A stretch of 46,737 nt of DNA from positions 1 through 46,737 of the forward strand of contig JBKHWX010000094.1 in NCBI GenBank assembly GCA_046566325.1. The letters are read 5' to 3'. Numbering within the stretch: position 1 is the stretch's first letter; each line of letters starts with the position of its first letter. Below, piece after piece: positions 13,880-44,637 of the stretch. The notes below the pieces were generated by a model. That model made no database searches and was not told where the DNA came from. It was given only the letters and a program-made list of their open reading frames with translations. The translations under genes and the position numbers were made by a program. This stretch comes from Actinomycetes bacterium (lineage in GTDB: Bacteria; Actinomycetota; Actinomycetes; Actinomycetales; BWSM-131).

Positions 13880-14536
13880 GTGACATGGGTGCGGACCGAT
13901 GGTCGCTGCCCGCGCTGCGGGGGGTCGGCGCGCCCGCCGGGCGTGTGGACGAGCGACTGGTCGTGCTCCCGGCACGGCCCTGTGCACCCGCTGCTGCCGC
14001 CGCACCCGCCCACAGGCGCATGGCTGGACGACGTCGCCGCGCGCTCGCGGGTGCCGGTCTGGTCGCTGTGGCCGCTCCCCACGGGCTGGCTCTTCACCGG
14101 GCTCGCGGAGGCCGGCGCGCCGAAGAGCGGCCCACAGGCGACGGTGGTCGCGTTCTCCGGCCCGAACCCCGCGCCACGACCGGAGGCACCTGGGGAGCGG
14201 CCCGCCGACCTGCTGCTCGTCGCGGAGTCACCGGGCGTCGGGCTCGGCGCCTTCCTCGCCGGCCTGGACGACGTCGACCCCGGAGCGTCGGTCGGCTGCG
14301 GCCCCGCCCACGGCCAGGTCCGGGCCGACGGCCATGCGTCGTCCCTCTGGCTCGTGGACGGCCCGCCCGACCGCGCGACGTACGTGGGCGAGGCGGGCGG
14401 AGTCTGGCTCTACCTCGTCCTCTGGCCGGCCACGGCCGGTGTGCTGCTCGCCGAGCCCCTGCACCTGCGCGACGTGCGCGGCGACCCGGCGGCCGCGCGA
14501 CCACCGGCGGGCGCCCCGACGACGCGCCTCGGCTGA
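13880..14536 (+). CDS. Conserved hypothetical protein with an N-terminal CxxC...CxxH zinc-ribbon-like motif
   Basis: 'RCPRCGG...WSCSRHGPVHPL' is followed by 'VPVWSLWPLPTGWLFTG' and 'LWLVDGPPDRATYVGEAGGVWLYLVLWPATAG'. Third positions are G/C-rich. The start is GTG 13880 or GTG 13889. Function is unknown. Confidence 0.6.
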   Translation: MTWVRTDGRCPRCGGSARPPGVWTSDWSCSRHGPVHPLLPPHPPTGAWLDDVAARSRVPVWSLWPLPTGWLFTGLAEAGAPKSGPQATVVAFSGPNPAPRPEAPGERPADLLLVAESPGVGLGAFLAGLDDVDPGASVGCGPAHGQVRADGHASSLWLVDGPPDRATYVGEAGGVWLYLVLWPATAGVLLAEPLHLRDVRGDPAAARPPAGAPTTRLG

Positions 14537-14620
14537 CCTACTGGCTGACCCACGGGTCCCACCGAGAAGCACGCGCTCTCCCCCGGTGGGCCCGCTTCGG
14601 CCGACGACTACGCTCGCCGC

Positions 14621-15463
14621 GTGCGCATCGACCTGCACACGCACTCCACCGTGTCGGACGGGACCGAGCCCCCGGCGCAGGTGGTGCGGGCGGCCGCGCG
14701 CGCGGGTCTCGACGTCGTCGCCCTCACCGACCACGACTCGACCGCCGGCTGGGACGAGGCAGCGGCCGCCGCCGTCCGGTACGGCGTGCTTCTCGTGCGC
14801 GGGATGGAGGTCTCCAGCACCTACCGCGGCATCAGCGTCCACCTGCTCAGCTACCTGCACGACCCCGCGTCCCCTGGCCTGCTGCAGGAGGTCGACGCGG
14901 CACGCGAGTCGCGCGAGTACCGGGCGCGGCGCATGGTCGAGCGGATCGCGGACGACTACGACCTCGAGTGGGGGGACGTCGAGGCGCAGGCGGCCCAGGG
15001 GACGACGCTCGGCCGACCCCACATCGCCGACGCCCTGGTCGCCCGCGGCCACGTGGAGAGCCGGGACGAGGCGTTCGCGACAATTCTCCGCAGCCGGTCG
15101 CGCTACTTCGTGCCGCACTACGCCCCGGACGCCGTCAGCGCCGTCCGGCTCATCCGGGAGGCGGGCGGCGTTCCCGTGTTCGCCCACCCACTGGCCAGCG
15201 CCCGGGGCCGTGTCGTCGGGGACGACGCCATCGAGGAGCTCGTCGACGCGGGCCTCCTGGGCCTCGAGGTCGACCACCGGGACCACGACGACGCCGCTCG
15301 GCGGCACCTGCGCGACGTCGCCGCGGCGCACGACCTCCTCGTCACCGGGTCGAGCGACTACCACGGCGCCGGCAAGCAGAACCGGCTCGGGGAGTTCACC
15401 ACCGACCCCGAGGCGCTGCAGCGCATCGAGGACGACGGCACGCTCGAGGTCGTCCGTCCGTGA
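14621..15463 (+). CDS. PHP-domain metal-dependent phosphoesterase (TrpH/YciV-like)
   Basis: 'MRIDLHTHSTVSDGT', 'VVALTDHDS', 'GMEVS', 'VHLLSY', 'GGVPVFAHP', 'GLEVDHRDH' and 'TGSSDYHG' give the PHP His/Asp metal-ligand pattern. Confidence 0.9.
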   Translation: MRIDLHTHSTVSDGTEPPAQVVRAAARAGLDVVALTDHDSTAGWDEAAAAAVRYGVLLVRGMEVSSTYRGISVHLLSYLHDPASPGLLQEVDAARESREYRARRMVERIADDYDLEWGDVEAQAAQGTTLGRPHIADALVARGHVESRDEAFATILRSRSRYFVPHYAPDAVSAVRLIREAGGVPVFAHPLASARGRVVGDDAIEELVDAGLLGLEVDHRDHDDAARRHLRDVAAAHDLLVTGSSDYHGAGKQNRLGEFTTDPEALQRIEDDGTLEVVRP

Positions 15464-15533
15464 CGGACGTCGTGCTCGTCAGGCCGTCGGACGTCCCGCC
15501 CCTACCTCGCCGTCGCGCTCGGGACCAGGCACG

Positions 15534-15935
15534 TCAGGCCTCCGGACCAGGCATCACCTCGAACCACACCCGCTTGCCGGAGACGTTGCTCCGGCAGCCC
15601 CAGCGGTCCGCGAGCGCGTCGACCATCTGCAGGCCCCGGCCGCCGACGGCCCACAGGTCCTCCTCCAAGGGGACGACCTGGCCGGGCAGGACGTCGTCCA
15701 CCTCGACCCGCACCGCCCCCCGCCGAGCTCTGCCGGCCCGCAGGACGACCGGCCCGTTACCGTGGCGGATGGCGTTCGTCACCAGCTCGCTGGTCAGCAG
15801 GACCGCCACGTCCGCGGCGGCCGAGTCGACCCCCCAGCTCTCGAGCGTCGCGTCGAGCGCGCGCCGGGCCCGGGCGACCTCCGTCGGGTCGTCCTGCAGC
15901 CTGGCGATCACCTCCACGCCGGGATTGTCCAGCAC
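15534..15935 (-). CDS. RsbW/SpoIIAB-like anti-sigma-factor serine kinase (HATPase_c_2 domain)
   Basis: 'ARARRALDATLESWGVD...DVAVLLTSELVTNAIRHG...VRVEVDD...GGRGLQMVDALADRWG' is the N-box and G-box pattern of small anti-sigma kinases. The start is taken as GTG 15935. The rest of the 553-aa listed ORF is shadow. Confidence 0.7.
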   Translation of the reverse strand: MLDNPGVEVIARLQDDPTEVARARRALDATLESWGVDSAAADVAVLLTSELVTNAIRHGNGPVVLRAGRARRGAVRVEVDDVLPGQVVPLEEDLWAVGGRGLQMVDALADRWGCRSNVSGKRVWFEVMPGPEA

Positions 15936-16025
15936 GTCCAGGAGACCGGCAGAATGGGACGGCGTGACGACGTCCCGGTCGGAGGACCTCGTCGACAACC
16001 CGAACGGGCCCTGTTCTGGACCCGG

Positions 16026-16847
16026 ATGGAGGAGTGCGGACACGTGAACCGGGCGGCTCGTGTGCTGGCGGTGGCCAACCAGAAGGGAGGGGTCGCGAAG
16101 ACGACGACGGTCGCGTCGCTCGGCGCGGCGTTCTCGGAGCAGGGGCTGCGCGTGCTGCTGGTCGACCTCGACGCCCAGGCCTGTCTCACGTTCTCGCTCG
16201 GGATCGACGCCGACGAGGTCGAGTGCAGCGTCCACGACGTCCTGGTCGGGAGGGCGAAGGCCGCCGACGCGCGGCTCGAGGCGGACGACGGCGTCGACCT
16301 GCTTCCCGCCACGATCGACCTGGCTGGCACCGAGGCCCAGCTCCTGATGCGGCCCGGTCGCGAGTACGTGCTGAGGTCCGCGCTCGAGGACGTCGAGCCG
16401 GACTACGACGTCGTCCTGCTCGACTGCTCGCCGTCGCTCGGCGTCCTGACCCGGAACGCCCAGACCGCCGCGGACGAGGGCCTCGTCCCGCTCCAGTGCG
16501 AGATGCTCAGCCACCGCGGTGTCGGGCAGCTGCTCGACACGATCGCCGACGTCCAGCGGATCCTGAACCCCGACCTCGTGGTCCGCGGCGTCCTGCCCAC
16601 GATGTTCGACTCGCGCACCAGCCATGCGCGCGCTGTGCTCGCCGACGTGGGGGAGCGCTACGCCGTGCCCGTGCTCGCGCCGCCCATCCCGAAGTCGGTG
16701 CGGTTCGCCGAGGCGCCCGCGGTGGGCCGCTCGATCCTGACGACGGCCCGGGGGTCGAAGGGCGCCGCTGCCTACCGCGACGTCGCCGCCGACCTGCTGC
16801 AGCAGTGGAAGCTCGTGCCGGGACGGCGACCCGCGGCCCGCCTGTGA
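16026..16847 (+). CDS. ParA/Soj-family P-loop ATPase
   Basis: The deviant Walker A 'VANQKGGVAKTTT' is present, with 'LLVDLDAQA', 'DVVLLDCSPSLG' and 'IPKSVRFAEAPAVGRSI'. The start is ATG 16026 or GTG 16044. Confidence 0.9.
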   Translation: MEECGHVNRAARVLAVANQKGGVAKTTTVASLGAAFSEQGLRVLLVDLDAQACLTFSLGIDADEVECSVHDVLVGRAKAADARLEADDGVDLLPATIDLAGTEAQLLMRPGREYVLRSALEDVEPDYDVVLLDCSPSLGVLTRNAQTAADEGLVPLQCEMLSHRGVGQLLDTIADVQRILNPDLVVRGVLPTMFDSRTSHARAVLADVGERYAVPVLAPPIPKSVRFAEAPAVGRSILTTARGSKGAAAYRDVAADLLQQWKLVPGRRPAARL

Positions 16848-20026: not shown

Positions 20027-20251
20027 TCAGCCCACTCCGAAGCCGACCCGCCGGGTCTCCTCGACGCCGATCTCGACGTAGGCGAGCGAGGTCGTCGGCA
20101 CGACGACGAGCCGGCCCTTGTCGTCGGTGAGCCGCAGGCTCGGCGCGCCCGCCAGTGCCGCGTCCACCGCCTCGGCGACCTGCTCCGGTGTCTGTGACGA
20201 CTCGAGCACGATCTCCCGGCTGACGTTCTGCACGCCGATCTTGACCTCCAC
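20027..20251 (-). CDS. DUF3107-family protein
   Basis: 'MEVKIGVQNVSREIVLES...LRLTDDKGRLVVVPTTSLAYVEIG' matches the small conserved actinobacterial DUF3107 protein (TB9.4-like, from memory). Confidence 0.88.
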   Translation of the reverse strand: MEVKIGVQNVSREIVLESSQTPEQVAEAVDAALAGAPSLRLTDDKGRLVVVPTTSLAYVEIGVEETRRVGFGVG

Positions 20252-20289: not shown

Positions 20290-20931
20290 CTAGCCGTCGG
20301 CCTCCCGAAGGCCGGCGTCGGCCTTCGGGAACCCCCCGAGCCCGCGCCACGAGATCTGGGCGATCAGACGCGCCGCCTCGTCCCGGGGGATGCTCCGGCC
20401 CGTCTGCAGCCAGTAGCGCGCGGTGACCTGCGCCATGCCCGCGAGCGCCATCCCGAGCAGCTCCGCCTCGCCCCGCTCCAGCCCCGCGTCCTCCTGGATC
20501 ACTTCGGCGATCGCCCTCGCGCAGGAGCGCTCGACCCGGTCCACGCGCTCGCGGACGCCGGCGTCGTTCGTCAGGTCCGACTCGAAGACGAGGCGGAAGG
20601 GAGCGTCCTCCCGGTCGACGAACCGGAAGTAGGCGGCGATGGTCGCCGCGACGCGCAGCTTGTTGTCGCTCGTGGACGACAGCGCCGCCCGGACGTCGTC
20701 CAGCAGCTCTGCGACGTGCTGGTCGAGGATGGCGAGGTAGAGGTCGAGCTTGCCGGGGAAGTGCTGGTACAGGACGGGCTTGCTCACACCCGCGCGTTCG
20801 GCGATCTCGTCCATCGCGGCACCGTGGTAGCCGTTGCAGACGAAGACCTCCTGCGCCGCGGCGAGCAGCTGTGCCCTTCTTGCGCTGCGCGGCAGGCGCG
20901 CTCCTCGTGCCCGGGTGTCTTCCGTGGTCAC
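20290..20931 (-). CDS. TetR/AcrR-family transcriptional regulator
   Basis: The HTH is 'LLAAAQEVFVCNGYHGAAMDEIAERAGVSKPVLYQHFPGKLDLY'. GTG 20931 is preceded by GAGGAGGGA with a 5-nt spacer. Confidence 0.9.
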   Translation of the reverse strand: MTTEDTRARGARLPRSARRAQLLAAAQEVFVCNGYHGAAMDEIAERAGVSKPVLYQHFPGKLDLYLAILDQHVAELLDDVRAALSSTSDNKLRVAATIAAYFRFVDREDAPFRLVFESDLTNDAGVRERVDRVERSCARAIAEVIQEDAGLERGEAELLGMALAGMAQVTARYWLQTGRSIPRDEAARLIAQISWRGLGGFPKADAGLREADG

Positions 20932-21021
20932 GGGCGTCCCTCCTCGTCGCCGCCCAGGACGGGCACGCCGTGCGACGGGTGCCGCCGCCGGCCGGAGCAT
21001 CTTACCGGCCAGTAGGGCGAG

Positions 21022-21312
21022 TCAGGCCTCCTCGAGCGCCTCGCCGAAGTCGTGCAGCACCTTGTTGCGCCGGCTCGCGGCCAGCAGATGTCCGGCCGCC
21101 AGCACGCCGGCGATCGGCCACTCGAGCGCGCCCACGACGGCCAGCAGACCGACGCCGCCGAGGAAGGCCAGCTCGTTCGTCGGTGGCAGCTCGATCGTGC
21201 CGACCACGGGCACCTGGACGCGGACCGTGTTGCGGTCCGTGGCCTTCTGCGCGGCTCGTCGACCGCCACCGGGTTGCGTGCTTGCGGGGAGCGCCGAGGT
21301 CTGCGCCGTCAT
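21022..21312 (-). CDS. Small membrane protein P1 (96 aa), paralog-like to 23388..23735 and 28298..28657
   Basis: ATG 21312 has GGAAGGGA 9 nt upstream. Third positions are G/C-rich. The core 'IELPPTNELAFLGGVGLLAVVGALEWPIAGVLAAG' has one hydrophobic helix. Confidence 0.6.
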   Translation of the reverse strand: MTAQTSALPASTQPGGGRRAAQKATDRNTVRVQVPVVGTIELPPTNELAFLGGVGLLAVVGALEWPIAGVLAAGHLLAASRRNKVLHDFGEALEEA

Positions 21313-21335
21313 GCCGCACCGTCCCTTCCGGACCT

Positions 21336-21414
21336 CGTCGCATGCTCGAATGCGACGTCCCTCCCAGGGTAAGTACGCGTCGGCGAGGTCGCATCGAGTC
21401 GAAATCGAGTCGAA
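21336..21414. promoter_or_regulatory. Repeat-rich divergent control region (inverted repeat plus 11-bp tandem direct repeat)
   Basis: CGTCGCAT-gctcga-ATGCGACG lies at 21336-21357, with an 8-bp perfect stem. ATCGAGTCGAA is repeated twice in tandem at 21393-21414, preceded by a third GTCGCAT. A TAAGTA -10-like hexamer lies at about 21370. Confidence 0.4.
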
Positions 21415-21433
21415 GAGGAAGCGGGCGACCAGA

Positions 21434-23287
21434 GTGACACAGCCCGCCGGTGGCACGGGACGGTCCGCTGGGCCGAAGGCAGGCGGATCGCAGCGCCGGG
21501 ACACGCAGCGCGGGAACCAGCACAGCCAGGGCCAGCACAGCCAGAACCAACAGCACCAGGACCAGCACCACCGACACACGCACCGCCAGGACCACCACCG
21601 CCTACCGGTGCTGCAGGGGGTGCTGCCCCTCGACAGGGCGCACCTGCCGGCCGACCTGCTGGCCGGCGTGACGCTCGCCGCCCTCGGCATCCCGGAGGTC
21701 CTCGGCTACGCCAAGATCGCGGGTATGCCGGTCGTCACCGGCCTCTACACGATCCTCCTGCCGATGGCGGTGTTCGCGCTGCTGGGCTCCTCGCGGCACC
21801 TCGTGGTCGGCGCCGACTCGGCCACGGCGGCCATCCTCGCAGCAGGTCTCGCGGGTGTGGGTGTGGCCACCGGCTCGAGCAGGTACGTCTCCCTCGCCGG
21901 CCTGGCGGCGCTGATCACCGGAGGTCTGCTGCTGCTGGCGAGGGTCGTCCGGCTCGGCTTCCTCGCGAACTTCCTCTCCCGCACGGTCCTGGTCGGGTTT
22001 CTCACCGGCGTGGGTGTCCAGGTCGCCGCCGGGCAGGTGGGCGAGATGCTCGGCGTGGACGGCGCAGGGCACGGGACGATCGGCAAGCTGACCGCCGTCG
22101 CCCGGCACATCAGCGGCACGAACGCCGCGACCGTCGTCGTGTCAGCCGCCGTCGTCGTCCTCGTCGTGGGCATGCGGTACGTGACGCGACGCGTGCCCGG
22201 GGCGCTGATCGCCGTGGTAGGGGGCATCGCCGTCGGCCGGTACGGACATCTGCAGGCGCACGGCGTCCGCATTCTCGGCCCGGTTCCGAAGGGCCTGCCC
22301 CACCTTGCGCTCCCCACTCTCAGCCTGACCGCGGCCACAGGCCTGGTGGGCACCGCCGTGTCGATGTTCGTCGTCGTCCTCGCGCAGAGCTCTGCCACCT
22401 CACGTGCCTACGCGGCACGCTATGGGGAGAGCTTCGACGAGAACACCGATCTCGTCGGTCTCGGCGCCGCGAACATCGCGGCCGCGGCCACGGGAACGTT
22501 CGTCGTCAACGGCAGCCCGACCAAGACCGAGATGGTGGACGGCGCGGGGGGCCGCAGCCAGGTGTCACAGCTGACGACGTCCCTCGTCGTCCTCGTCGTC
22601 CTGCTGTTCCTGACCGGGCCGCTGGCCTACCTGCCGCTCGCCGTTCTCGCCACGATCGTCTTCCTCATCGGGGTCGAGCTGGTCGCCGTCCGCAGCATGC
22701 GACAGATCCTTGCGGTGCGCCGAAGCGAGTTCGTCGTCGCGCTGCTCACCGCCGCTGCCGTCGTCCTCGTGGGTGTCGAGCAGGCGATCGTCTTCGCGAT
22801 CCTCGCTTCGATCGTCGACCATCTCCGCCACAGCTACGACCCGCGCAGCACGGTTCTCGTGCCCACCGCCGAGGGCCACTGGAAGTCCGTCCCCGCGGGT
22901 CCCGGTCAACGGACGTCCGGGAGCCTGCTGATCTTCCGTTTCGGCTCCAGCCTCTACTACGCGAACGCCCACGAGCTGCTGCGCGACGTCAGACGGTTCG
23001 TGCAGGACGGTGAGACGCTCACCGTGTTCTGTCTGGACGCGGTGGCGGTCGGGGACGTCGACTTCACCGCGGGCGCGGCGCTGCGGCGCGTCCACGACAC
23101 GCTGCACGGGGCCGGCGTCCGGCTCGTCTTCTCGGAGGTGGCGGAGCCGGTTCGCAAGGAGCTGGACCGCTACGGGATCACCGCGCTGGTCGGTGCCGAC
23201 GCGTACTACCCGGCCCTGGCCGACGTCCTCGCAGCCTTCGCGCCGTCTCCACGCGTGGCGGACGAGGGCGCCTCGGCAGAAACCTGA
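21434..23287 (+). CDS. SulP-family anion transporter with a C-terminal STAS domain
   Basis: 'DLLAGVTLAALGIPEVLGYAKIAGMPVVTGLYT', multiple TM segments and a STAS-like C-terminus ('LLIFRFGSSLYYANAHELLRDV...DVDFTAGAALRRVHDTLHGAGVRLVFSEV') are present. The start is ambiguous. GTG 21434 adds a His/Gln-rich extension, and GTG 21608 gives a conventional N-terminus. Confidence 0.88.
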   Translation: MTQPAGGTGRSAGPKAGGSQRRDTQRGNQHSQGQHSQNQQHQDQHHRHTHRQDHHRLPVLQGVLPLDRAHLPADLLAGVTLAALGIPEVLGYAKIAGMPVVTGLYTILLPMAVFALLGSSRHLVVGADSATAAILAAGLAGVGVATGSSRYVSLAGLAALITGGLLLLARVVRLGFLANFLSRTVLVGFLTGVGVQVAAGQVGEMLGVDGAGHGTIGKLTAVARHISGTNAATVVVSAAVVVLVVGMRYVTRRVPGALIAVVGGIAVGRYGHLQAHGVRILGPVPKGLPHLALPTLSLTAATGLVGTAVSMFVVVLAQSSATSRAYAARYGESFDENTDLVGLGAANIAAAATGTFVVNGSPTKTEMVDGAGGRSQVSQLTTSLVVLVVLLFLTGPLAYLPLAVLATIVFLIGVELVAVRSMRQILAVRRSEFVVALLTAAAVVLVGVEQAIVFAILASIVDHLRHSYDPRSTVLVPTAEGHWKSVPAGPGQRTSGSLLIFRFGSSLYYANAHELLRDVRRFVQDGETLTVFCLDAVAVGDVDFTAGAALRRVHDTLHGAGVRLVFSEVAEPVRKELDRYGITALVGADAYYPALADVLAAFAPSPRVADEGASAET

Positions 23288-23387
23288 GCGAGAGCGGCTT
23301 TCTCTGCGAAGTCCTTTGGCGCGTAACGGGAATGCCCGGAACCGGCGAGGGTAGTTCTCCGTTGGGAGTTCGATAGAGGAGGCAGCC

Positions 23388-23735
23388 ATGGCAACGTCGA
23401 ACGACAAGGCCAGCGAAACGAGCACCCAGGACAGGGCAGGCCAGACGGAGACCTCCGGCAGCGCCGGCACCCAGACCGGGACCGCGCAGGTCGAGGCTCG
23501 GGCCAGCGCCGGTGAGCAGACCGTCGGCCTTGGCGTCGGCATGAGGGCGCCCTTGCCGAGCAACGTCCAGGTGGACCCGAAGCGGCTGCTGTGGTTCGGC
23601 GGCCTCGTGGCGGTCGGGGCCCTCGGCGTCCTGGAGTGGCCGGTCGTCGCCGCCGTCGGCGTAGGCAGCTACGTCGCCGAGCAGTTCGCGAAGAGCGACC
23701 GGAAGCAGAGGACGCAGACGGCCTCCGCGCAGTAG
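23388..23735 (+). CDS. Small membrane protein P2 (115 aa), paralog-like to P1 and P3
   Basis: A strong GAGGAGG lies 6 nt upstream of ATG 23388. The N-terminus is Ser/Thr/Gln-rich and disordered, followed by 'VQVDPKRLLWFGGLVAVGALGVLEWPVVAAVGVG'. Confidence 0.75.
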   Translation: MATSNDKASETSTQDRAGQTETSGSAGTQTGTAQVEARASAGEQTVGLGVGMRAPLPSNVQVDPKRLLWFGGLVAVGALGVLEWPVVAAVGVGSYVAEQFAKSDRKQRTQTASAQ

Positions 23736-23759
23736 CGGCGACGTCGCGGGAGGCAGCAC

Positions 23760-26700
23760 GTGTTCGGTGCTGTCCTCGAGGCCTTGGTCGAGCCGTCTCG
23801 CCGGCTCGGCGTGCCGACCCTGCCGCGCCGCATCCTCGACCTCGCCGTCCCCCAGCGCGTGGGAGGCCGCCGGGCGTGGGTGAGCGAGGGCCGGGCGGTC
23901 ATCGAGGTTCACCTCGACGGCGCGGACGGCGAGCGGGTCCGCCGCGTGGAGCAGGCGCTGGAGGCGTGCCCCGGCGTCGAGTGGGCCCGTGTCAACGGCC
24001 CGCTCGGCCGGGTCATCGCGGCGCTCGGGAGCGGGAGCCCTCCTCTCGCCGAGCTCGTGGACCTGGTCGAGCGGGCCGATGCTGCGACGGGTCACCGGGT
24101 CGGCCCGGACCTTCCCCTCGACCGGGGTCCGGAGCAGCGTGCCCTCGCCGCCCTCGTCGCCGACGGGCTCGGGCTCGCGCTCACCGGCATCGGCAGGGTC
24201 ACCGGTCTCGGGGCGGTGCCGCTGGAGCTCGCCTCGGCGGTGACGGCCGTGGACACCGTGCCGCGGCTGCGCGCGCTCGCCGAGAGGCTGCTCGACCGGC
24301 CCGCCGCGGACATGACGATCGCCGTGGCGAACGCCGGCGCGCAGGGCCTCGCCCAGGGCGTCCTGGGGCTCGCGCTCGACGCCGCGTACCGGGTCCTGAG
24401 CCTCCGCGAGGCGAACGCGAACGCGACGGCGTGGCGGCAGCGGCAGAACCGGTACCTCGCGACGCCCGCGCGTGCGGCGGCGGCACCGGTCGCCGTGCGC
24501 CGGCCCACGCCGCTGCCTCCCGGCCCGATCGAGCAGTGGGGTGACCTCGCCGGCCTGCTCGGCGCGGTCACCTTCCCCGTGGCGCTCGCCGCCACGCACG
24601 ACCCGCGGCAGGCGGCCGGACTCGCCCTTGCCTCGTTGCCCAAGTCCGCCCGGCTCGGCCGGGAGGGCTTCGCCACCTGGCTCGGGTACAGCCTTGCCCG
24701 CCGCGGGTCGGTGGTGCTCGAGCCGGCGGCGCTGCGGCGGCTCGACCGGACGAGCACCGTGGTCCTCGACTCCGCCGTCCTGCTGACCGGCGCCCATCTC
24801 CTGGGCACCGTGCTCGCCTTGCCCGGGGCGAGGGCGGACGAGGTCACCCGGCGGATCTACGGGATGTTCCACGGGGAGGACCCCTGGGTCGTGCGCCAGG
24901 ACGGGGCGTGGCGGTTGGGTCCTGTCGACGAGCTCGCTCCTTCCGACCAGCTGGCTCCTCTCGACGAAGCCGGCGTCGCGTCGCGGCAGGCCGCGCGCGA
25001 GCGACAGCGGCTGGAGGCCGAGGCGGGCGTCGTCGTCCTCGGGCTCACCGAGAACGGCCGCCTGGTCGGCCTCGCAGCCGTGGTCCCCGAGCCGACGGAG
25101 TCGTGGGAGGCGCTCGCGGCCGCGTGTCACCGCGCCGGTCGCTCCCTCGTCGTCGCCGGCCCACCGCTGTCGACGTGGTCATCCGTGGCCGGGGCCGTGA
25201 TGCCGGGCGGGGCGGACCTGCTGGCGACGGTTCGGGCGCTGCAGCGGGACGGCGGCGTGCTGCTCGTCTCGCGCGACGGGCGGGCGCTCGCGAACGCGGA
25301 CATCGGGGTCGGCGTCGACACCGAGGACGGCGGTGCCCCCTGGGGGGCGCACGTGCTCGTCGGCGGCGACCTCGGCCACGTCGCCCTGCTGATCGACGCC
25401 TCCGCCGTCGCGGCAGCGGTGAGCAGGCGCAGCGTGACGCTCGCGCAGGCAGCCACCGGGATCGGAGGGCTCGCGGTCACGGCCAGCGCCCTGCGTCCTC
25501 CCACACCGAGGGCACTACTCGCCGTCAACATGGCGGCGGCGGCCGCCCTCGCCCACGGCGCGTGGGCCGCCCACCAGCTCACGCGGCGTCCGCTGGTCCC
25601 GCCCGTCTCCAAGGTCCCCTGGCATGCCATGCCGGTCGACCTCGTCCTGGACCGCGTGGGCACGCAGCCGTCCGGGCTGGACATGCCGGAGGCCCGCCGG
25701 CGCAGCCGCGGGGGCGACGGGGAGGCGGTCGGGCCCACCAGCCTGCTGTCCGCGGTGGCCGAGGAGCTGTCCAACCCCCTGACGCCGATCCTTGCGGCCG
25801 GGACCGCCCTGTCGGCGGCGGTCGGCTCCGTCGTCGACGCAGGTCTCGTCGCCGGAGCGGCCCTGGCAAGCGCACTCGTCGGCGGGCTGCAGCGGCGCGG
25901 CACGGACCGGGCGCTGGCGGACCTGCTCGCCCAGTCCGCGGTCACGGCTCGAGTCCGGAGGGACGGCGCGGTCGTCGCGCTGCCCGCCGACCAGCTCGTG
26001 CCGGGCGACATCCTGCTGCTCGCGCCCGGGGACGTCGTCCCCGCCGACTGCCGTGTCGTCGAGGCCGCCGACCTCGAGCTCGACGAGTCGTCACTGACCG
26101 GGGAGCCCTTCCCGGTGGTCAAGAGCACGGCCCCCAGCTCCGCCGCGGCCCTCGCCGAGCGCACGTCGATGGTCTACGAGGGGACGACGGTCGCTGCCGG
26201 CCGCGGTGTCGTCGCGGTGGTGGCGACGGGCACGTCGACCGAGTCCGGCCGGACCATCGCGGCGACGAGGGCCGGAGCCGGGGCGGGCGGGGTCGAGGCG
26301 CGGCTCGCGCAGATCACGCGGGTCACGGTCCCTCTCACGCTCTCGTCCGCCGTCGCGGTGGTCGGGGCAGGGTTGCTGCGGGGTCGGTCCATCGCCAGCA
26401 CGGCAGGCGCGGCGGTGAGCCTCGCGGTCGCCGCGGTGCCCGAGGGGCTGCCGTTCCTCGTCAGCGCGGCGCAGCTGGCGGCCGCCCGCCGCCTGTCCGG
26501 ACTGGGTGCGCTGGTCCGCAACCCGCGGACGATCGAGGCGCTCGGGCGGGCCGACGTCCTCTGCTTCGACAAGACCGGCACCCTGACCGAGGGCCGGATC
26601 GCTCTCGGCGCCGTCGCCGGCCCGGACGGCCCACCCGTCAGTCCCGACCGGCTGACGGCGACCCTGCGCCCGGTGCTCGCTGCCGGGCTTCGCGCAACCC

Positions 26701-28235
26701 CGGAGCCCGGTCCCGGACAGCACCTCGCCCACCTGACGGACCGGGCGGTGGCCGAGGGGGCCGCGCTGGCCGACGTCTCTCGCAAGAGCGGCCTCGGCAC
26801 CTGGCACCGGGCCGCGGCGCTGCCTTTCGAGCCGTCCCGAGGGTTCCACGCCACCCTCGGACGCGCCGGACAGGTGGAGGTGCTCAGCGTCAAAGGCGCG
26901 CCCGAGATCGTCCTGCCCCGGTGCGCGGCGGTTGCCCGGGACGGCCGGCGGCTTCCGCTGGACCGGCGGGAGCGGCGGCGGCTGACCCGGCAGGTGGAGC
27001 AGCTGGCGGCGCTGGGCTACCGGGTGCTGGCCGTGGCCGAGCGGGTCGACGAGGCGTGGCCGACGACCGTCGTCGACGACGACGTCCGCGACCTCACGCT
27101 GCTCGGCTACCTCGCGCTCACGGACCCGGTGCGGACCGCGGCGAGGGCGTCGATCACGACGCTCCGGGACGCAGGTGTGCAGATCGTGATGATCACGGGC
27201 GACCACCCCAGCACCGCGGCCTCCATCGCGCGGCGGCTCGACCTGCTCGACGGCCGCGTGGTGGTCACCGGTCCCGAGCTCGACTCCCTCACCGACGAGG
27301 CGCTCGCCCGCAGGCTGCCGGACGTCGCGGTGGTCGCCCGGAGCACGCCTACGCACAAGGTCCGGGTCGTCCAGGCCTTCCAGCAGCTGGGCAGGACCGT
27401 CGCCATGCCCGGGGACGGTGCCAACGACGCTCCCGCCATCCGGCTCGCCGACGTCGGGATCGCGCTCGGACGACGCAGCACGCCCGCCGCCCGTGCCGCC
27501 GCCGACCTCGTGGTCACCGACGACCGCCTCGAGACGATCATCGCCGCGCTCGTCGAGGGGCGTGCGATGTGGGGCTCTGTGCGCAAAGCGCTGGGGATCC
27601 TGGTCGGCGGCAACCTGGGCGAGGTGGCGTTCACCGTGCTGGGCGCGCTCGCGACAGGCGCGTCACCGCTCAACGCGCGGCAGCTGCTGCTGGTCAACCT
27701 GCTCACCGACCTCGCCCCCGCCCTCGCGGTCGCGCTGCGGCCCCCGCAGGCCGCCTCTGTGGACACCCTGCTCACCGAGGGACCCGAGGCGTCGCTGGGC
27801 GCACCGCTCGTGCGGGACGTCAGCATCCGGGCTGCCGGGACGACGCTCGCGGCGACGACGGCGGCCCTGCTCGCCCGGGCGACCGGCAACGCGGCCGGGG
27901 CCGAGACGATCTCCCTGGTGGCGCTCGTCGCGGCACAGCTCGGCCAGACCCTCGTCGCGGGCGGGCCGAGCCGCGGCGTCCTGCTCGCGGGTCTGGGCTC
28001 GGTGGCGGTGCTCGGTCTGGTCGTCCAGGCCCCGGTCCTGAGCGCGTTCTTCGGCTCCACCCCGCTCGGCCTCGGCGGGCTGGCGATCGCCGCGCTGGCA
28101 GCCGGAGGAGCGACGGCCCTGAGCTCCGGTCCCCAGCTCTCCCGGTTCGCGGCCCTCTCGGCGCCGCTCGCTCGTGAGATCGGCATCGCCCCCGTCCGCT
28201 CGCTCCCGCCGGCACCGGCCCGAGCGGCCGCCTAG
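23760..28235 (+). CDS. Very long cation-translocating P-type ATPase (CtpH/CtpI-like) with an N-terminal extension of about 610 aa
   Basis: The canonical half carries 'SSLTGEPFPV' (TGE), 'CFDKTGTLTEG' (phosphorylation Asp at about nt 26568), 'MITGDHPSTA' and 'MPGDGANDAPAIRLADVGIALG'. GTG 23760 has GGGAGG 6 nt upstream. Confidence 0.92.
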   Translation: MFGAVLEALVEPSRRLGVPTLPRRILDLAVPQRVGGRRAWVSEGRAVIEVHLDGADGERVRRVEQALEACPGVEWARVNGPLGRVIAALGSGSPPLAELVDLVERADAATGHRVGPDLPLDRGPEQRALAALVADGLGLALTGIGRVTGLGAVPLELASAVTAVDTVPRLRALAERLLDRPAADMTIAVANAGAQGLAQGVLGLALDAAYRVLSLREANANATAWRQRQNRYLATPARAAAAPVAVRRPTPLPPGPIEQWGDLAGLLGAVTFPVALAATHDPRQAAGLALASLPKSARLGREGFATWLGYSLARRGSVVLEPAALRRLDRTSTVVLDSAVLLTGAHLLGTVLALPGARADEVTRRIYGMFHGEDPWVVRQDGAWRLGPVDELAPSDQLAPLDEAGVASRQAARERQRLEAEAGVVVLGLTENGRLVGLAAVVPEPTESWEALAAACHRAGRSLVVAGPPLSTWSSVAGAVMPGGADLLATVRALQRDGGVLLVSRDGRALANADIGVGVDTEDGGAPWGAHVLVGGDLGHVALLIDASAVAAAVSRRSVTLAQAATGIGGLAVTASALRPPTPRALLAVNMAAAAALAHGAWAAHQLTRRPLVPPVSKVPWHAMPVDLVLDRVGTQPSGLDMPEARRRSRGGDGEAVGPTSLLSAVAEELSNPLTPILAAGTALSAAVGSVVDAGLVAGAALASALVGGLQRRGTDRALADLLAQSAVTARVRRDGAVVALPADQLVPGDILLLAPGDVVPADCRVVEAADLELDESSLTGEPFPVVKSTAPSSAAALAERTSMVYEGTTVAAGRGVVAVVATGTSTESGRTIAATRAGAGAGGVEARLAQITRVTVPLTLSSAVAVVGAGLLRGRSIASTAGAAVSLAVAAVPEGLPFLVSAAQLAAARRLSGLGALVRNPRTIEALGRADVLCFDKTGTLTEGRIALGAVAGPDGPPVSPDRLTATLRPVLAAGLRATPEPGPGQHLAHLTDRAVAEGAALADVSRKSGLGTWHRAAALPFEPSRGFHATLGRAGQVEVLSVKGAPEIVLPRCAAVARDGRRLPLDRRERRRLTRQVEQLAALGYRVLAVAERVDEAWPTTVVDDDVRDLTLLGYLALTDPVRTAARASITTLRDAGVQIVMITGDHPSTAASIARRLDLLDGRVVVTGPELDSLTDEALARRLPDVAVVARSTPTHKVRVVQAFQQLGRTVAMPGDGANDAPAIRLADVGIALGRRSTPAARAAADLVVTDDRLETIIAALVEGRAMWGSVRKALGILVGGNLGEVAFTVLGALATGASPLNARQLLLVNLLTDLAPALAVALRPPQAASVDTLLTEGPEASLGAPLVRDVSIRAAGTTLAATTAALLARATGNAAGAETISLVALVAAQLGQTLVAGGPSRGVLLAGLGSVAVLGLVVQAPVLSAFFGSTPLGLGGLAIAALAAGGATALSSGPQLSRFAALSAPLAREIGIAPVRSLPPAPARAAA

Positions 28236-28297
28236 CCGGCACACGCCGTCCCCTTCGGAGACGGCACGGCCAAACCACCTTCTGGAAGGAGAGACCG

Positions 28298-28657
28298 ATG
28301 AGCGGCCCCGAGACCGGGATCAGCATCACCGTAGGACCGGTCGAGATCGACGTGCCGCAGTCCCTGGGGTACTACGCCGGGCTCGGCGCCGCCGTGGCCT
28401 TCGGTGTGCTGGACCCGCCGGTCGCGCTGTTCATCGCCACCATCCCGGTGTTCAAGATGCTCGGCGACGAAGGCAACCCCCAGCCGGTCCGCTTCGTCGG
28501 ACAGCTGCTCCAGGGAGCAGGCAAGCCCGTCGGCAGCGACGGCCAGGGCACCGTGAGGCTGGTCGAACCGCGTCGGGCACGGGAGGGCGTCGGCCGCGCG
28601 GTGCGTGGGATCACGCAGACCGCTCTCACCCCGGTTCTCACTCCCGTCCGCGCCTGA
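28298..28657 (+). CDS. Small membrane protein P3 (119 aa), paralog-like to P1 and P2
   Basis: GGAAGGAGAG lies just upstream of ATG 28298. The core is 'VEIDVPQSLGYYAGLGAAVAFGVLDPPVALFIATIPVF'. Confidence 0.7.
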   Translation: MSGPETGISITVGPVEIDVPQSLGYYAGLGAAVAFGVLDPPVALFIATIPVFKMLGDEGNPQPVRFVGQLLQGAGKPVGSDGQGTVRLVEPRRAREGVGRAVRGITQTALTPVLTPVRA

Positions 28658-28673: not shown

Positions 28674-29873
28674 ATGCTGCCGAGCGTGGCTGCACCCGTG
28701 AGGCTGCCGCCCCTGGTCGAGCCGGGGGAGGAGCTGACGACCGAGGAGGTCCGGCGCTACTCCCGCCACCTGCTGCTGCCCGACATCGGCATGGTCGGCC
28801 AGCGCCGGCTCAAGAACGCCAAGGTCCTGGTGGTCGGCGCGGGCGGCCTCGGGTCCCCGGCGATCACCTACCTGGCCGCGGCCGGCGTCGGCACGATCGG
28901 GATCGTGGACGACGACGTCGTCGAGGAGTCCAACCTGCAGCGCCAGGTGGTGCATCGCACCGCCGACGTCGGGCGAGCGAAGGTCGAGAGCGCGGCGGAC
29001 GCCGTGGCCGCGCTCAACCCGCTCGTGACGGTCCGGCAGCACGCCCTCCGCCTCACCAGCGCCAACGCCGTCGAGGTCGTCGGGCAGTACGACCTCGTGC
29101 TGGACGGCGCCGACAACTTCGCGACGCGCTACCTCGTGAGCGACGCCTGCGAGGTGCTCGGCGTCCCCGAGGTGTGGGCGTCGGTGTTCCGCTTCGACGC
29201 GCAGGTGAGCCTCTTCTGGGCGGGGCACGGGCCGACGTACCGGGACCTGTTCCCCGAGCCACCGCCTCCCGGCTCGGTGCCGTCCTGCGCGGAGGGCGGC
29301 GTCCTCGGCGCCATGGTCGCCTGTGTCGGTTCCGTGATGGCGACCGAGGCAGTCAAGCTCGTCGTCGGTTCGGGCGAGCCGCTGCTCGGACGGCTGCTCG
29401 TCCTCGACGCCCTGTCGATGACCTGGCGGCAGCTTCGGATCCGGCCGCTGCCCGACCGCGCGCCGGTCCGCGAGGTGACGGACGTCGAGGCCTGGTGCTC
29501 GGCCGTCTCGGGGCCGGAGCCTGAGGCGTCCGCCGCCTTGTCGGAGGTCGGGGCTCCCGAGCTGGCCGACCTGCTGCGGGCCCGTCAGCGGGGCGAGGCC
29601 GACTTCGTGCTCGTCGACGTGCGTGGCGACGCGGAGCGGGCGGTCGTCAGCGTCCCCGGCGCCGTCGCCGTCCCCCTCGACGACATCCTGGCCGGGGACG
29701 TCGAGCAGCTGCTCCCGCTGGACCGCCGCGTGATCCTGCACTGCAAGAGCGGTGCTCGCTCCGCCCGTGCCCTGCAGGCCCTGCAGTCGGCGGGCTTCAC
29801 GAACGCCGCCCACCTGCGCGGCGGCGTGCTGGCGTGGGTCGAGGAGGTGGACCCGACCCTGCCGCGGTACTGA
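28674..29873 (+). CDS. moeZ: Adenylyltransferase/sulfurtransferase MoeZ (ThiF/MoeB E1-like domain fused to rhodanese)
   Basis: 'LPPLVEPGEELTTEEVRRYSRHLLLPDIGMVGQRRLKNAKVLVVGAGGLGSP', 'DDDVVEESNLQRQVVH', 'DGADNFATRYL' and 'SCAEGGVLG' are present, with a C-terminal rhodanese domain holding the active-site 'HCKSGARS'. It is close to mycobacterial MoeZ as I recall it. The start is ATG 28674. Confidence 0.93.
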   Translation: MLPSVAAPVRLPPLVEPGEELTTEEVRRYSRHLLLPDIGMVGQRRLKNAKVLVVGAGGLGSPAITYLAAAGVGTIGIVDDDVVEESNLQRQVVHRTADVGRAKVESAADAVAALNPLVTVRQHALRLTSANAVEVVGQYDLVLDGADNFATRYLVSDACEVLGVPEVWASVFRFDAQVSLFWAGHGPTYRDLFPEPPPPGSVPSCAEGGVLGAMVACVGSVMATEAVKLVVGSGEPLLGRLLVLDALSMTWRQLRIRPLPDRAPVREVTDVEAWCSAVSGPEPEASAALSEVGAPELADLLRARQRGEADFVLVDVRGDAERAVVSVPGAVAVPLDDILAGDVEQLLPLDRRVILHCKSGARSARALQALQSAGFTNAAHLRGGVLAWVEEVDPTLPRY

Positions 29874-33947: not shown

Positions 33948-34040
33948 GCGCTGGTCGCCGGCCGTCGAGGTGACGGCGGCCCGGGGCGGCGGCAGGCTCC
34001 GCGCCAGAGCACTGTCGGACCCCTGTGGTGGACTCCGACC

Positions 34041-37000
34041 GTGACATCGCTCGCCCGCTCCACCCGTCCCGGCTCCGGGGATCGGAACGACGTCGGAGAC
34101 CCCGCGGTCCCGCGGCTCGTGCGGTCCTCCCGGCCGTTCCGACCCGTCGACCTCGACCCGACACAACAGCGCGTCGTGGCGCTCCGGCGGGGGACCGGAC
34201 CCGTCGTCGTGCTGGGGGCCCCCGGTACCGGCAAGACCTCGGTCCTCGTCGAGTCGGTGGTCGCACGCGTGAGCCGCGACGGCGTCGACCCCAGCCGCCT
34301 GCTCGTCCTCTGCGCCTCCCGCCGGGCCGCAGCCGAGCTGCGCGACCGGGTGACCTCCCGGCTGGAGCGCACCGTGGTGGAGCCGCTCTCGAGGACCCCT
34401 CACTCGTACGCCTTCTCGCTGCTCAGCAGGGCCGCTGTCTCGATGGGCGAGCCGGCGCCCCGGCTGATGTCCGGTCCGGAGCAGGACCGCATGCTGGCGG
34501 ACCTGCTCTCGGGCCACGCCGACGGCGTAGGCCGTCGCCCCGACTGGCCGGCGTCCGTGCTGCCCGCGCTCGGGCTTCGCGGCTTCCGCGACGAGCTGCG
34601 GGACCTGTTGATGCGCGCCCTGGAGCACGGGCTCGGTCCTCGGGACCTGGCCGAGCTGGGACGGCGACACGCGCGGCCCGAGTGGGTGGCGGCGTCCGTC
34701 GTGCTTCGCGAGTACCTGGAGGTGACCGCTCTCGCGACCCCCGGCGCCTACGACCCGGCGGCGATCCTCGGGACGGCGGCGGACGTGCTGGAGGCCGACG
34801 ACGAGCTGCTGCGGGCCGAGCGGGAGCGCTGGGAGCTCGTCGCCGTCGACGACCACCACGAGTCCGGTCAGGCGGTCGCGCGGCTGCTCGACCTCCTCGT
34901 CGGCGGCGGCAAGGACCTGCTCGTGACCGGCGACCCCGACTCCAGCACGCAGACCTTCCGGGGTGCCGACCCCGGCCTCGTCGTGGCCGCCGCGGACCGT
35001 TACCGCCGCTCCGACGGGGCGCCGGCCGTCGTCGTCCGCCTGGGGATGCGGTGGCGGGCGAGCGCGCAGGTCGAGCGCGTCACGCGTCGTGTCGCCGAGA
35101 CTGTCGGCGCGCTCGGCGAGGTGGGGCACCGGGCCGCACGGCCGGCCGGTTCGGCCGGTTCGGCCGGTTCAGCCGGTTCAGCCGGGTCGGCCGGGTCGGC
35201 CGGGGACGGACGTCGGGACGGCGGACCTGCGGAAGACGGCGACGTCACGTCGGCGGTGCTGCGGTCGGCCAGCCAGGAGGCGTCCTACGTCGCCGCGGTG
35301 ATCCGACACGCCCACCTGATCGAGGGCATGCCCTGGTCGCAGATGGCCGTGCTCGTCCGCACGACCGGACGCACCCGAGCCCTGCGTCGCGCCCTGGCCG
35401 CCGCCGGGGTCCCGCTGACACTGCCTCCGGCGGACGTGCCCCTGCGCGACGAGGCCGCCGTCCGGCCTCTCCGGCTCGCGCTGCGAACGGCACTGGACCC
35501 GTCGGCGCTGGACGCGGACAGCGCCGTCGACCTGCTGTCCTCGCCGCTCGGCGGCGGGGACGCGCTCGCCGTCAGGCGGTTGCGCCAGGCGCTGCGTGCC
35601 CGGGACCGGGCGACGGCCGGAGCAAGGTCGAGCGACGCCCTGCTCGTCGAGGCGCTGGGCGACGCGCGCCGGCTCGAGCCGCTCCCTCCGGCGACACGGC
35701 AGCCGGCGGCCCGCGTCGCCGGCGTCATCGCCGCGGCACGGGAGGCGGCCGTGCAGCCGGCGGCGACCGGGGAGAGCGTGCTGTGGGCCCTGTGGTCGGC
35801 CACCGGCCTGGCCGAGACGTGGCGGCGCCAGGCGCTCGCCGGCGGCGCCACCGGCCGGCGGGCGGACCGCAACCTGGACGCTGTGGTCGCCCTGTTCGAC
35901 GCGGCGGCGCGCTTCGCGGACCGGCTGCCGGCCGCGGGACCGCAGGGGTTCCTCGAGCACCTGGAGGCCCAGGACGTGCCGGCGGACACGCTCGCCGAGG
36001 CCGCACCCGACGGCGAGGCGGTCTGCCTCCTGACTCCCCAGACCGCAGCGGGCCGGGAGTGGGACCTCGTCGTGCTCGTCGGCCTGCAGGAGGGGGTGTG
36101 GCCCGACCTGCGCCTTCGGGGGTCCCTGCTCGGGGCTTCGGCGCTGGCGGACCTGCTGACCGGTCGAGGTGTGGCCGCCGGCGCTCTCGCCGGGGCTCGT
36201 CGCCAGGTGCTCGCGGACGAGCGCCGCCTGCTCCACGTGGCCGTCAGCCGCGCGCGACACCGGCTCGTCGCCACCGCCGTGCGGAACGCGGACGAGCTGC
36301 CGTCGTCCTTCCTCGACCTCGTCGACCCGCTGCCGGACGACGGCAGCGGTCACGGCGGCGACGGGGAGCGGCGCTTCGCACACGTCCCCCGGATGGTGAG
36401 CCTGCCCGCTCTCGTCGCCGAGCTGAGACAGGTCCTTCTGACTGCGGAAGGGGTGGCAGACGCAACCGGCCGGCCCGTCACCGCTTCCCGACGGGCGGAG
36501 GCCGCTCGGCAGCTCGCGCGCCTCGCTGCCGCCGGAGTTCCCGGAGCCCATCCCGACGACTGGTACGGCCTGCCCGGCATCTCCGACGCCGGCCCGCTCC
36601 GGGAGGAGGAGGCTCCCGTGCGCGTCTCCCCGTCCAGGGTGGAGGCGTTCGGCCGCTGCCCCCTGCGCTGGCTGCTCGAGGCGTCGGGAGGCACGCCCGG
36701 CGACAGCACCGCCCAGACGGTCGGCAACCTCGTGCACGAGATCGCCGCCGAGGCCCCGTCGGGAACCGTGGAGCAGCTGACCGAGAAGCTGGAGCAGCGG
36801 TGGCACCGCCTCGGCCTGCCGGACACGTGGGTGAGCGCCCGCGAACGGGCCCGGGCCGAGGCGATGCTGCGGCGGCTGGCCGCGTACATCGCGGCCAACA
36901 CGAGGCATCTCGTGGCCGTCGAGCAGGACTTCTCGGTCGACCTCGGCCGGGCGGAGCTTCGCGGCCGCGTCGACCGGCTGGAGCGGGACGCCGACGGCCG

Positions 37001-42659: not shown

Positions 42660-42738
42660 CTCTGCCTCCTGGTTGCTGCTCTGGTCTCCTCGCGAACGCC
42701 CTCGATACGCAGACTGTGCCCCGCCTGTCGGTGCAGGC

Positions 42739-43557: not shown

Positions 43558-43595
43558 GAGGACGCCCTCGTGGTGCCGGCGCGCCTGGCCCCGGC

Positions 43596-44516: not shown

Positions 44517-44637
44517 GGCGTCAACGGTAGAGGCAGCGCGCGGCGCTCTCGGCAGGGGCGCGCGGGTCCGGCCCGGGTCCCGAGGGCGCCACGGCGTCGT
44601 GGACGGGCCGTGTCCCCTCGTCGCCTACGGTGAGCGC

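Follow-up and report, generated by a model that had tools for sequence, protein, structure and literature searches.

A block of five genes at positions 21022-28657 of contig JBKHWX010000094.1 (a stretch of 46,737 nt, forward strand; hereafter the window, to which all coordinates refer) contains three genes for small membrane proteins, here called P1, P2 and P3, around the genes of a SulP anion transporter and of a long P-type ATPase. Judged from their sequences, P1, P2 and, more loosely, P3 are members of one previously undescribed actinobacterial family of small membrane proteins with a predicted intramembrane [ED]-[WP]-P break. The ATPase looks, from its motifs, like a fusion of two pump-like halves, the N-terminal one degenerate and the C-terminal one, of the SERCA/LMCA1 kind, apparently intact. 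Because of the gene linkage described below, a functional partnership of P1- and P2-type proteins with this two-headed pump is the best explanation, and on balance a probable one. P1 and P2 are probably membrane-embedded accessory proteins of the pump, a physical association that we infer from the linkage of their genes.

A shared architecture and kinship of the three small proteins had been claimed in the initial annotation. Pairwise BLASTP comparisons among P1, P2 and P3 gave E-values of 3e-6, 1e-3 and 2e-4, and profile-profile comparison with hhalign, using subfamily alignments assembled from database homologues, was significant for every pair: E=2e-17 (probability 98.9%) for P1/P2, E=5e-9 (96%) over 61 columns for P1/P3, and E=1.3e-5 (80%) for P2/P3. 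The P1/P3 match includes the C-terminal 'FGEALEEA' of P1, which aligns with 'FVGQLLQGA' of P3. By these comparisons the three proteins are true, homologous paralogues, with P1 as the central type among the three subfamilies. Each of them carries the family core and a second hydrophobic helix. The motif originally described is essentially right according to column frequencies in 363 unique cores, which give the consensus L-x-[FYW]-x-[GA]-G-x7-[GE]-x2-[ED]-[WP]-P-[VIL]; the [ED], [WP] and Pro positions are each conserved in 99% of these cores, and the second glycine of the GG pair in 94%.

The family architecture consists of a beta-hairpin-like lead-in, the L-x-[FYW]-x-G-G motif, a helix of small residues, the near-invariant [ED]-[WP]-P break and a second helix, all preceded by a polar, low-complexity, disordered N-terminus of variable length. 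In P1, the disordered N-terminus is followed by the beta-hairpin-like VRVQVPVVGTIELPP, the helix-break-helix LAFLGG..GALEWP, an invariant GH and the C-terminal FGEALEEA. The corresponding part of P2 is DPKRLLWFGGL..GVLEWPVVAAVGVGSYVAEQFAK, and P3 has the beta-hairpin ISITVGPVEIDVP, the LGYYAG..GVLDPP break, the second helix FIATIPVFKML and a conserved PVRFVGQLLQGAGKPVGSDGQGTVRL. The lead-in ahead of the core is a short stretch of alternating hydrophobic and polar residues, which forms a beta-hairpin in the AlphaFold2 (AF2) model of P3 (residues 8-19). In the same model this is followed by a helix at residues 21-34, a break at GVLDP/DPP, and helices at 40-55 and 62-75, with a block-mean predicted local distance difference test score (pLDDT) of 85-97 over residues 21-60. 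For P2, a disordered N-terminus and one long helix were predicted (residues 64-114, block-mean pLDDT about 78-88). The single hydrophobic helix originally proposed for all three proteins has to be revised, as the helix-break-helix modelled for P3 indicates that the hydrophobic part, with its two arms of about 16 and 12-15 residues, is probably not one plain helix. The charges flanking the hydrophobic part do not discriminate between a single membrane span with a kink and a hairpin that re-enters the membrane.

Several observations concern the termini of family members and of the pump (loci from other genomes and contigs are numbered with the prefix L). A large P1-type clade has the sequence 'GHLL[AT][ED]DHHH[KR]' directly after the second helix (L013, L042, L043, L046, L047, L050, L052, L059, L060, L072-L074, L086 and L092), and in the majority of these loci it stands together with a fourth type, a short protein that stops directly behind the helix (..GVIEWPVAAAVGIGYALARR). 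One clade has a P2-like protein with a His/Asp/Cys-rich C-terminal tail of 45 residues (HAPHAGHDHTHGTECGHAVIPHGDHSDYLHDGHRHAAHDDHWDEH) without a Pfam match (L083 7189-7323, L090 from 1793, L096 from 1962 and L098 from 5811). In L090 and L096, the hidden Markov model (HMM) match of a SulP protein starts about 0.9-1.2 kb downstream of this His-tailed gene. The conserved N-terminus of the window pump, 'MFGAVLEALVEP' (23760-23800), resembles the conserved C-terminal 'DFGEALEEA' of P1 (21022-21050) and 'RFVGQLLQGA' of P3, a similarity too short for statistics.

The family is large. Word-indexed searches retrieved 38 relatives of P2, 14 of P1 and 23 of P3, the query included in each count. An exhaustive HMM search of 1.84e9 cluster representatives gave 1,211 matches at E<=1e-3 and 362 at E<=1e-10; as each representative stands for a cluster at 50% identity, the family comprises at least 1,211 clusters. 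Among the top 150 HMM matches, 143 were new, and sorting by regular expressions assigned about 50 to the P1 type, 48 to the P3 type and 12 to the P2 type, with 31 unclassified. All named source organisms are Actinomycetota, including Kineosporiaceae, Sinomonas, Arthrobacter, Intrasporangium, Mycobacterium sp., Streptosporangiaceae, Frankiaceae and Modestobacter. The statement that no function has been described for these proteins agrees with all sources consulted. No Pfam family matched P1-P3 at E<=1 or any of 26 family members at E<=0.1, NCBIfam gave no match for any member tested, and the PDB yielded none in sequence searches with the P proteins and the family profile, nor in a fold search with the P3 model (best E 2.5). 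The source names are all 'hypothetical protein', including those from cluster look-ups for 10 representatives, and a literature search found no paper on these small proteins. A single match to the glycine-zipper family DUF883_C (E 0.043) was rejected as noise.

The main evidence for a partnership is the position of the genes. All three genomes found with P2 as seed (Sinomonas susongensis, Arthrobacter bambusae and a Kineosporiaceae metagenome-assembled genome, MAG) have the P2-type gene adjoining an ATPase of 1,486-1,557 residues, in genomic surroundings that are otherwise unrelated. The Kineosporiaceae locus, P1(-) | P2(+) ATPase(+) P3(+), has the arrangement of the window minus SulP, and in Micrococcaceae a P1/P2 pair is found on either side of the pump. 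In a genome scan seeded with an alignment of the N-terminal half of the ATPase, P-like genes were adjacent in nine of the ten loci with flanks, all but that of a Polyangiales MAG (L015); this sample is small (11 loci, mostly close relatives) and excludes mycobacterial ctpH and ctpI. The largest sample is a metagenome scan of 80 contigs seeded with a P1-only alignment and restricted to sequences matching two peptide patterns. An ATPase gene lies within 600 bp in 44 of the 50 informative contigs (88%), the other 30 being too short. The linked ATPases have about 1,400-1,560 residues. In all stop-to-stop open reading frames (ORFs) that contain DKTGT and are not cut by a contig end, this motif is located 856-1,148 codons from the ORF start, except in L083, a frameshift fragment with the motif at codon 140. 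Since DKTGT lies so far into the ORF, the partner is always the long pump, with an N-terminal extension of about 600 residues.

Gene order and orientation vary considerably among these loci, with divergent, tandem upstream, downstream and convergent arrangements and two pairs in Micrococcaceae, and the adjacency is kept throughout. This persistence across variable gene orders favours functional coupling over inherited synteny. As a rule, a locus contains at least two distinct P paralogues. Where a co-directional P gene precedes the pump gene, its HMM match ends 32-47 bp from the ATPase match (L022, L026, L037, L040 and L066), and such short gaps (24 bp between P2 and the ATPase in the window) suggest co-transcription. 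The initial annotation had named two outcomes that would speak against its interpretation, no mutual similarity among the three proteins and no neighbourhood association; both were examined and neither was obtained, with the qualification that the association with long ATPases holds for the P1 and P2 types and mostly not for the P3 type, as detailed below. No copies of the N-terminal half were found in a search of plasmids. Two further loci are worth recording. In L014 (2488-4138, protein P0031, Frankiaceae MAG) the P2 frame runs without a stop into the N-terminus of the pump; since several frameshifts break this pump, the locus probably reflects a misassembly or a pseudogene and not a true fusion. 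In L013, a hydrophobic protein of 588 residues without a Pfam match (14389-16155) is encoded between the long ATPase and a P1-type gene.

All Pfam domains of the window ATPase are confined to residues 621-1452 (E1-E2_ATPase 137, Hydrolase 57 and Cation_ATPase_C 54 bits, with cut-offs of 28, 26 and 27, respectively). This C-terminal half contains the motifs TGEP (residues 780-783), VPEGLP in M4 (893-898), DKTGTLT (937-943), MITGDH and GDGANDAPA, and both M5 (GGNLGEV) and M6 (VNLLTDLAP) have site residues of the SERCA type. The best PDB matches of this half are LMCA1 (6zhh, E 1e-100) and SERCA (E 1e-76), with SPCA1 also among the best. PEGL, DKTGT, TGDGxND, N..E in M5 and N..TD in M6 are common to LMCA1/SERCA and the window pump, which differs from them in its extra degenerate half of 620 residues, in TGEP for TGES and in MPGDG for MTGDG. 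From its site residues, Ca2+ or a comparable divalent cation is the probable substrate of the pump. Since equivalog scores are far below the cut-offs (377 against 798 bits for the PMR1-type TIGR01522, and 321 against 703 bits for the SERCA-type TIGR01116), Ca2+ is a prediction and not a family assignment.

The N-terminal half begins with an HMA-like domain without CxxC (about residues 46-110). At the position of M4 it has 'LPKSARLGRE' (residues 293-302, nt 24636-24665), in which Lys replaces the ion-binding Glu. In 'LRRLDRTSTVVLD' Asp337 is kept and KTGT is lost, and SRDGRALANADIGVGV replaces GDGxNDxPAL..ADIG. In a co-linear hhalign alignment of the two halves over 446 columns these motifs are in register: SLPKSARLG with AVPEGLPFL, ALRRLDR..VVLD with EALGR..LCFDKTGT, VVAG with MITGD, and SRDGRALANADIGVGV with GDGANDAPAIRLADVGIAL. 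A simple hydropathy analysis gave no count of transmembrane helices for this Ala-rich half. The N-terminal half is 46-54% identical across four genera, and its degenerate motifs are conserved in 33 homologues. All 33 of these long ATPases have P-[KR] at the PEGL position (P-K in 31, P-R in 2). Outside this set, the only non-actinobacterial long pump (L015 9824-13996, from a Polyangiales MAG), with an N-terminal half 38% identical, also has P-R at the pseudo-M4.

We propose that P1 and P2 would form a hetero-oligomer in the membrane, lying against the transmembrane domain of the pump, and that this heteromer would stabilise or regulate the pump in the manner of small subunits elsewhere among P-type ATPases. 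The functional contact would be made by the invariant buried acidic residue of P1 and P2. The conserved Lys/Arg found in the degenerate M4 in place of the ion-binding Glu is an attractive candidate for its counter-charge.

In architecture, though by description and not by sequence, the pump is similar to CtpH (Rv0425c) and CtpI (Rv0107c) of M. tuberculosis. AlphaFold models of these uncharacterised ATPases contain a degenerate P-type ATPase N-terminal region (PMC13460109), and the two occupy an isolated branch of the tree and may form a family of their own (PMC10654040). Two genes for small predicted membrane proteins flank ctpH, Rv0424c (10 kDa, one transmembrane segment) and Rv0426c (13.9 kDa, two segments) (PMC2396618), as small membrane protein genes also flank the window pump; the parallel with ctpH drawn in the initial annotation thus holds as far as size and transmembrane prediction go. 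PacL proteins, whose genes accompany those of mycobacterial P1B-ATPases, are small membrane proteins on which the function and organisation of these pumps depend (PMC9374683, PMC13460109). Like PacL1, PacL2 and PacL3 (DUF1490; with CtpC, CtpG and CtpV), the P proteins are actinobacterial, have about 80-120 residues and adjoin a P-type ATPase gene with which they would be co-expressed; several paralogues occur per genome, and some members have metal-binding motifs. Unlike PacL, the P family has no DUF1490 match, and its domain order differs, being disordered N-terminus, beta-hairpin and helix-[ED][WP]P-helix. The hydrophobic segment of the window proteins comes after a long polar N-terminus, and the His/Cys/Asp-rich C-terminus of PacL is absent from them. 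The partner pumps of PacL are of the P1B class, whereas that of the P family is P2-like with a degenerate N-terminal half, and the P genes typically form a heterotypic pair at one pump.

Sarcolipin and phospholamban (SERCA), FXYD proteins (Na,K-ATPase), KdpF (KdpFABC) and MgtS/MgtR (MgtA/MgtB/MgtC) are small, hydrophobic proteins that contact the transmembrane domain of an ATPase. The likeness of the P proteins to sarcolipin, phospholamban, FXYD, KdpF and MgtS is a functional analogy only; comparison by sequence and with Pfam gave no match. At 2-4 times the length of the sarcolipin/FXYD/KdpF group, the P proteins have a conserved buried acidic residue, a proline break and a beta-hairpin lead-in, and form a large family of several subfamilies, and their contact with the pump is a prediction. 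By analogy, they are filed here as a putative new instance of small P-type ATPase accessory proteins that belongs to no described family.

A number of points weigh against an accessory role of the P proteins at this pump. What points to a partnership is the arrangement of the genes, and contact between the proteins is predicted from it. Six of the 50 informative P1-like genes are orphans, for which the flanking sequence, at least 2 kb in either direction, contains no ATPase gene; the genes around them are diverse and include no common partner. In the Polyangiales locus L015, the 10 kb upstream of the pump gene and the roughly 7 kb downstream of it contain no P-like gene; since this pump nevertheless keeps the basic pseudo-M4, it can probably exist without adjacent P genes. 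Only one of six contexts found with P3 as seed, that of Intrasporangium, has an ATPase, and P3-type genes are mostly found elsewhere. The AF2 topologies of P2 (one long helix) and P3 (helix-break-helix) diverge, and positive-inside flanking charges are indecisive. The pump-like origin of the N-terminal half also rests on weak matches, as its PDB profile matches have E-values of 0.03-0.1 (HMA domain about 0.07, P-domain of SPCA1 0.03) and the internal-duplication alignment of the two halves, although co-linear and with its motifs in register, is statistically weak (hhalign E 0.014).

The P proteins could instead be PacL-like scaffolds or metallochaperones, and not integral regulatory subunits. 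In that role they would gather the pump into platforms in the membrane, and those of certain lineages would use His-rich segments to pass on a transition metal; the pump substrate would then be a transition metal. PacL offers a precedent within the same phylum (PMC9374683, PMC13043812), and the long disordered polar N-termini of the P proteins, the 'GHLLAEDHHHK' just past the helix in the large P1 clade, the 'HAPHAGHDHTHGTECGHAVIPHGDHSDYLHDGHRHAAHDDHWDEH' that ends the P2-like protein of another clade, the HMA-like domain at the start of the pump and the probable His/Gln-rich N-terminal tail of the window SulP would all suit such a role. We nevertheless hold it to be unlikely. No family member matches DUF1490 or any other Pfam family, the domain order is unlike that described for PacL, and P1, P2 and P3 of the window have no His- or Cys-rich motif. 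Moreover, the HMA-like domain lacks CxxC, and the active half has PEGL and N/E/N-T-D, as in Ca2+ pumps, and not the CPC, SPC or CPH of P1B-ATPases.

Slightly less credence is given to the P proteins being free-standing membrane proteins of stress response or ion homeostasis, for instance an oligomeric pore or a sensor, that are merely co-regulated with transporters. This would account best for the P3 type, with its genes beside MIP, MscL or Ion_trans_2 or alone, and it agrees with the existence of orphan P1-like genes and with the sharing of loci with SulP and, in L013, with the 588-residue membrane protein; a helix of glycine and small residues with a buried Glu would also suit self-association. 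Shared regulation alone can hardly explain 88% adjacency to one rare pump architecture in many gene orders, however, and the short gaps to the pump gene suggest co-transcription. In addition, the named sources are all Actinomycetota, and the single Polyangiales long ATPase has no P-like gene near it. That the small ORFs are chance ORFs with similar hydrophobic translations, as high-GC DNA gives many spurious ORFs, is effectively refuted by their coding codon-position GC, their Shine-Dalgarno sites, and the conservation of hundreds of homologues, in which the motif residues are invariant and the flanks variable.

A more far-reaching and, in our view, improbable model would make the P1/P2 hairpins ion-handling subunits docked on the degenerate half, with which they would form a second ion site or gate that is independent of ATP. 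Their buried Glu beside the proline break would mirror the P-E-G-L ion site of the pump, and this invariant Glu would dock onto the degenerate half with Lys/Arg in its M4. The second site or gate would be driven or regulated by the active half, a combination of fossil pump and small subunits that is reminiscent of KdpFABC. The wider family, including the P3 type, would then be a cation module, i.e. a general actinobacterial membrane-inserted acidic hairpin for cation sensing or conduction.

Of the five P3 contexts other than that of Intrasporangium, some have a MIP, an MscL or a K+ channel of the Ion_trans_2 family and others no transporter, including one with an uncharacterised neighbour cut by the contig end. 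The Intrasporangium locus contains SulP, ATPase, P2, P1 and P3 in a different order. Neighbours of P3-type genes are thus channels for water, osmolytes and ions more often than pumps, and include MIP and Ion_trans_2 in L019, MIP in L100-L102 and MscL in L104-L106; L019 has four P-like genes and no ATPase. The P3 type is probably a sister subfamily used more generally beside ion and water channels, which in the window would be a neighbour and possibly a third partner of the pump.

The SulP protein of the window scores 245 bits with Sulfate_transp and 38.6 bits with STAS, and 313 bits with TIGR00815, which is under the cut-off of 380. The preferred start is GTG at 21434, with ATG at 21350 as a possible alternative; later GTG starts are excluded because the conserved N-terminal 'PVLQGVLP' would be lost. 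SulP adjoins the module in the window, L014, L018, L090 and L096, and in all of these except L014, which has a different SulP, it belongs to the 'PVLQGVLP' subfamily (four of five loci). The association of SulP with the module, as originally proposed, does recur in at least four other loci, but these are a minority, and SulP is an occasional companion or passenger of the module and not a core part. If started at GTG 21434, the protein has an N-terminal tail of 58 residues (21434-21607) ahead of 'PVLQGVLP', which is His/Gln-rich (..GNQHSQGQHSQNQQHQDQHHRHTHRQDHHR..), with high GC content at the third codon position (GC3). This tail might, from its composition, bind metal; those of the SulP proteins of L018 and L090 are less His/Gln-rich.

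Features of the block at 21022-28657 and its flanks (positions in the window)
Feature	Position (nt)	Strand	Length (residues)	Remarks
DUF3107	20027-20251	-		Pfam; flank of block
TetR	20290-21000	-		Pfam; flank of block
P1	21022-21312	-	96	P1-type member; core motif 21103-21195
SulP anion transporter (Sulfate_transp + STAS)	~21434-23287	+		Pfam
P2	23388-23735	+	115	P2-type member; core motif 23565-23657
P-type ATPase, whole	23760-28235	+	1,491	
ATPase N-terminal half, putative degenerate pump module	23760-25619	+	residues ~1-620	no Pfam domain before residue 621
ATPase C-terminal half, apparently intact P2-like pump	25620-28235	+		Pfam and motifs
P3	28298-28657	+	119	P3-type member; core motif 28340-28432
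moeZ (ThiF + rhodanese)	28674-29873	+		Pfam; ATG at 28674; other flank

The positions of the five ORFs and the peptides quoted for the small proteins in the initial annotation were exact on rechecking, as were the gaps, with 24 bp separating P2 from the ATPase, 62 bp the ATPase from P3 and 16 bp P3 from moeZ. Good ribosome-binding sites had been noted at all three small genes; GGAGG-type Shine-Dalgarno sequences indeed precede P1, P2 and P3, and also the ATPase gene. The ORFs of P1, P2 and P3 show the signature of high-GC coding sequence, with GC3 of 0.88-0.94 and GC content at the second codon position (GC2) of 0.52-0.55. The 96-residue form of P1 is the right one, since the 5' extension in a 222-residue ORF lacks this coding signature (GC2 0.75, non-coding-like). 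The stop codon of P1 precedes the TetR start (21000) by 21 bp on the same strand; P1, TetR and DUF3107 may form a single transcript, which, if so, would tie P1 to the conserved TetR/DUF3107 regulator pair.

A scan of the window identified no Rfam families or tRNAs. Between 20000 and 30500 no promoter-like sites were found and one terminator-like site, equal to the chance expectation; a hairpin 3' of the ATPase stop codon is no better than shuffled sequences (z -1.0). In the 100-nt leader of P2 (23288-23387), CUUUCUCU pairs with the Shine-Dalgarno sequence AGAGGAGG (fold z -2.1), and a comparable fold sequestering the Shine-Dalgarno sequence precedes P2 in L018 (8462-8567, minus strand, z -2.2). 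As a conserved element this leader was rejected, the fold being absent in L001, L002 and L004 and without a match in Rfam. Elsewhere in the window (37820-40387, minus strand), an ORF of 855 codons without a Pfam match has a coding-like GC3 of 0.82 and a very high GC content at the first codon position (0.92), and overlaps very long ORFs on both strands (34025-41092 and 39508-45549).

Annotation pipelines now label every gene of the P family 'hypothetical protein'. The CtpH/CtpI-like pump architecture is now tied to small membrane proteins of a large family that lacks annotation, in which the P partners keep a buried acid while the degenerate half of the pump keeps a basic residue at the ion-site position. 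For pump biochemistry and cryo-electron microscopy, this provides a concrete list of likely partners for co-expression. If the partnership is true, Actinomycetota would have, besides PacL, a second and independent example of P-type ATPases with small membrane partners.

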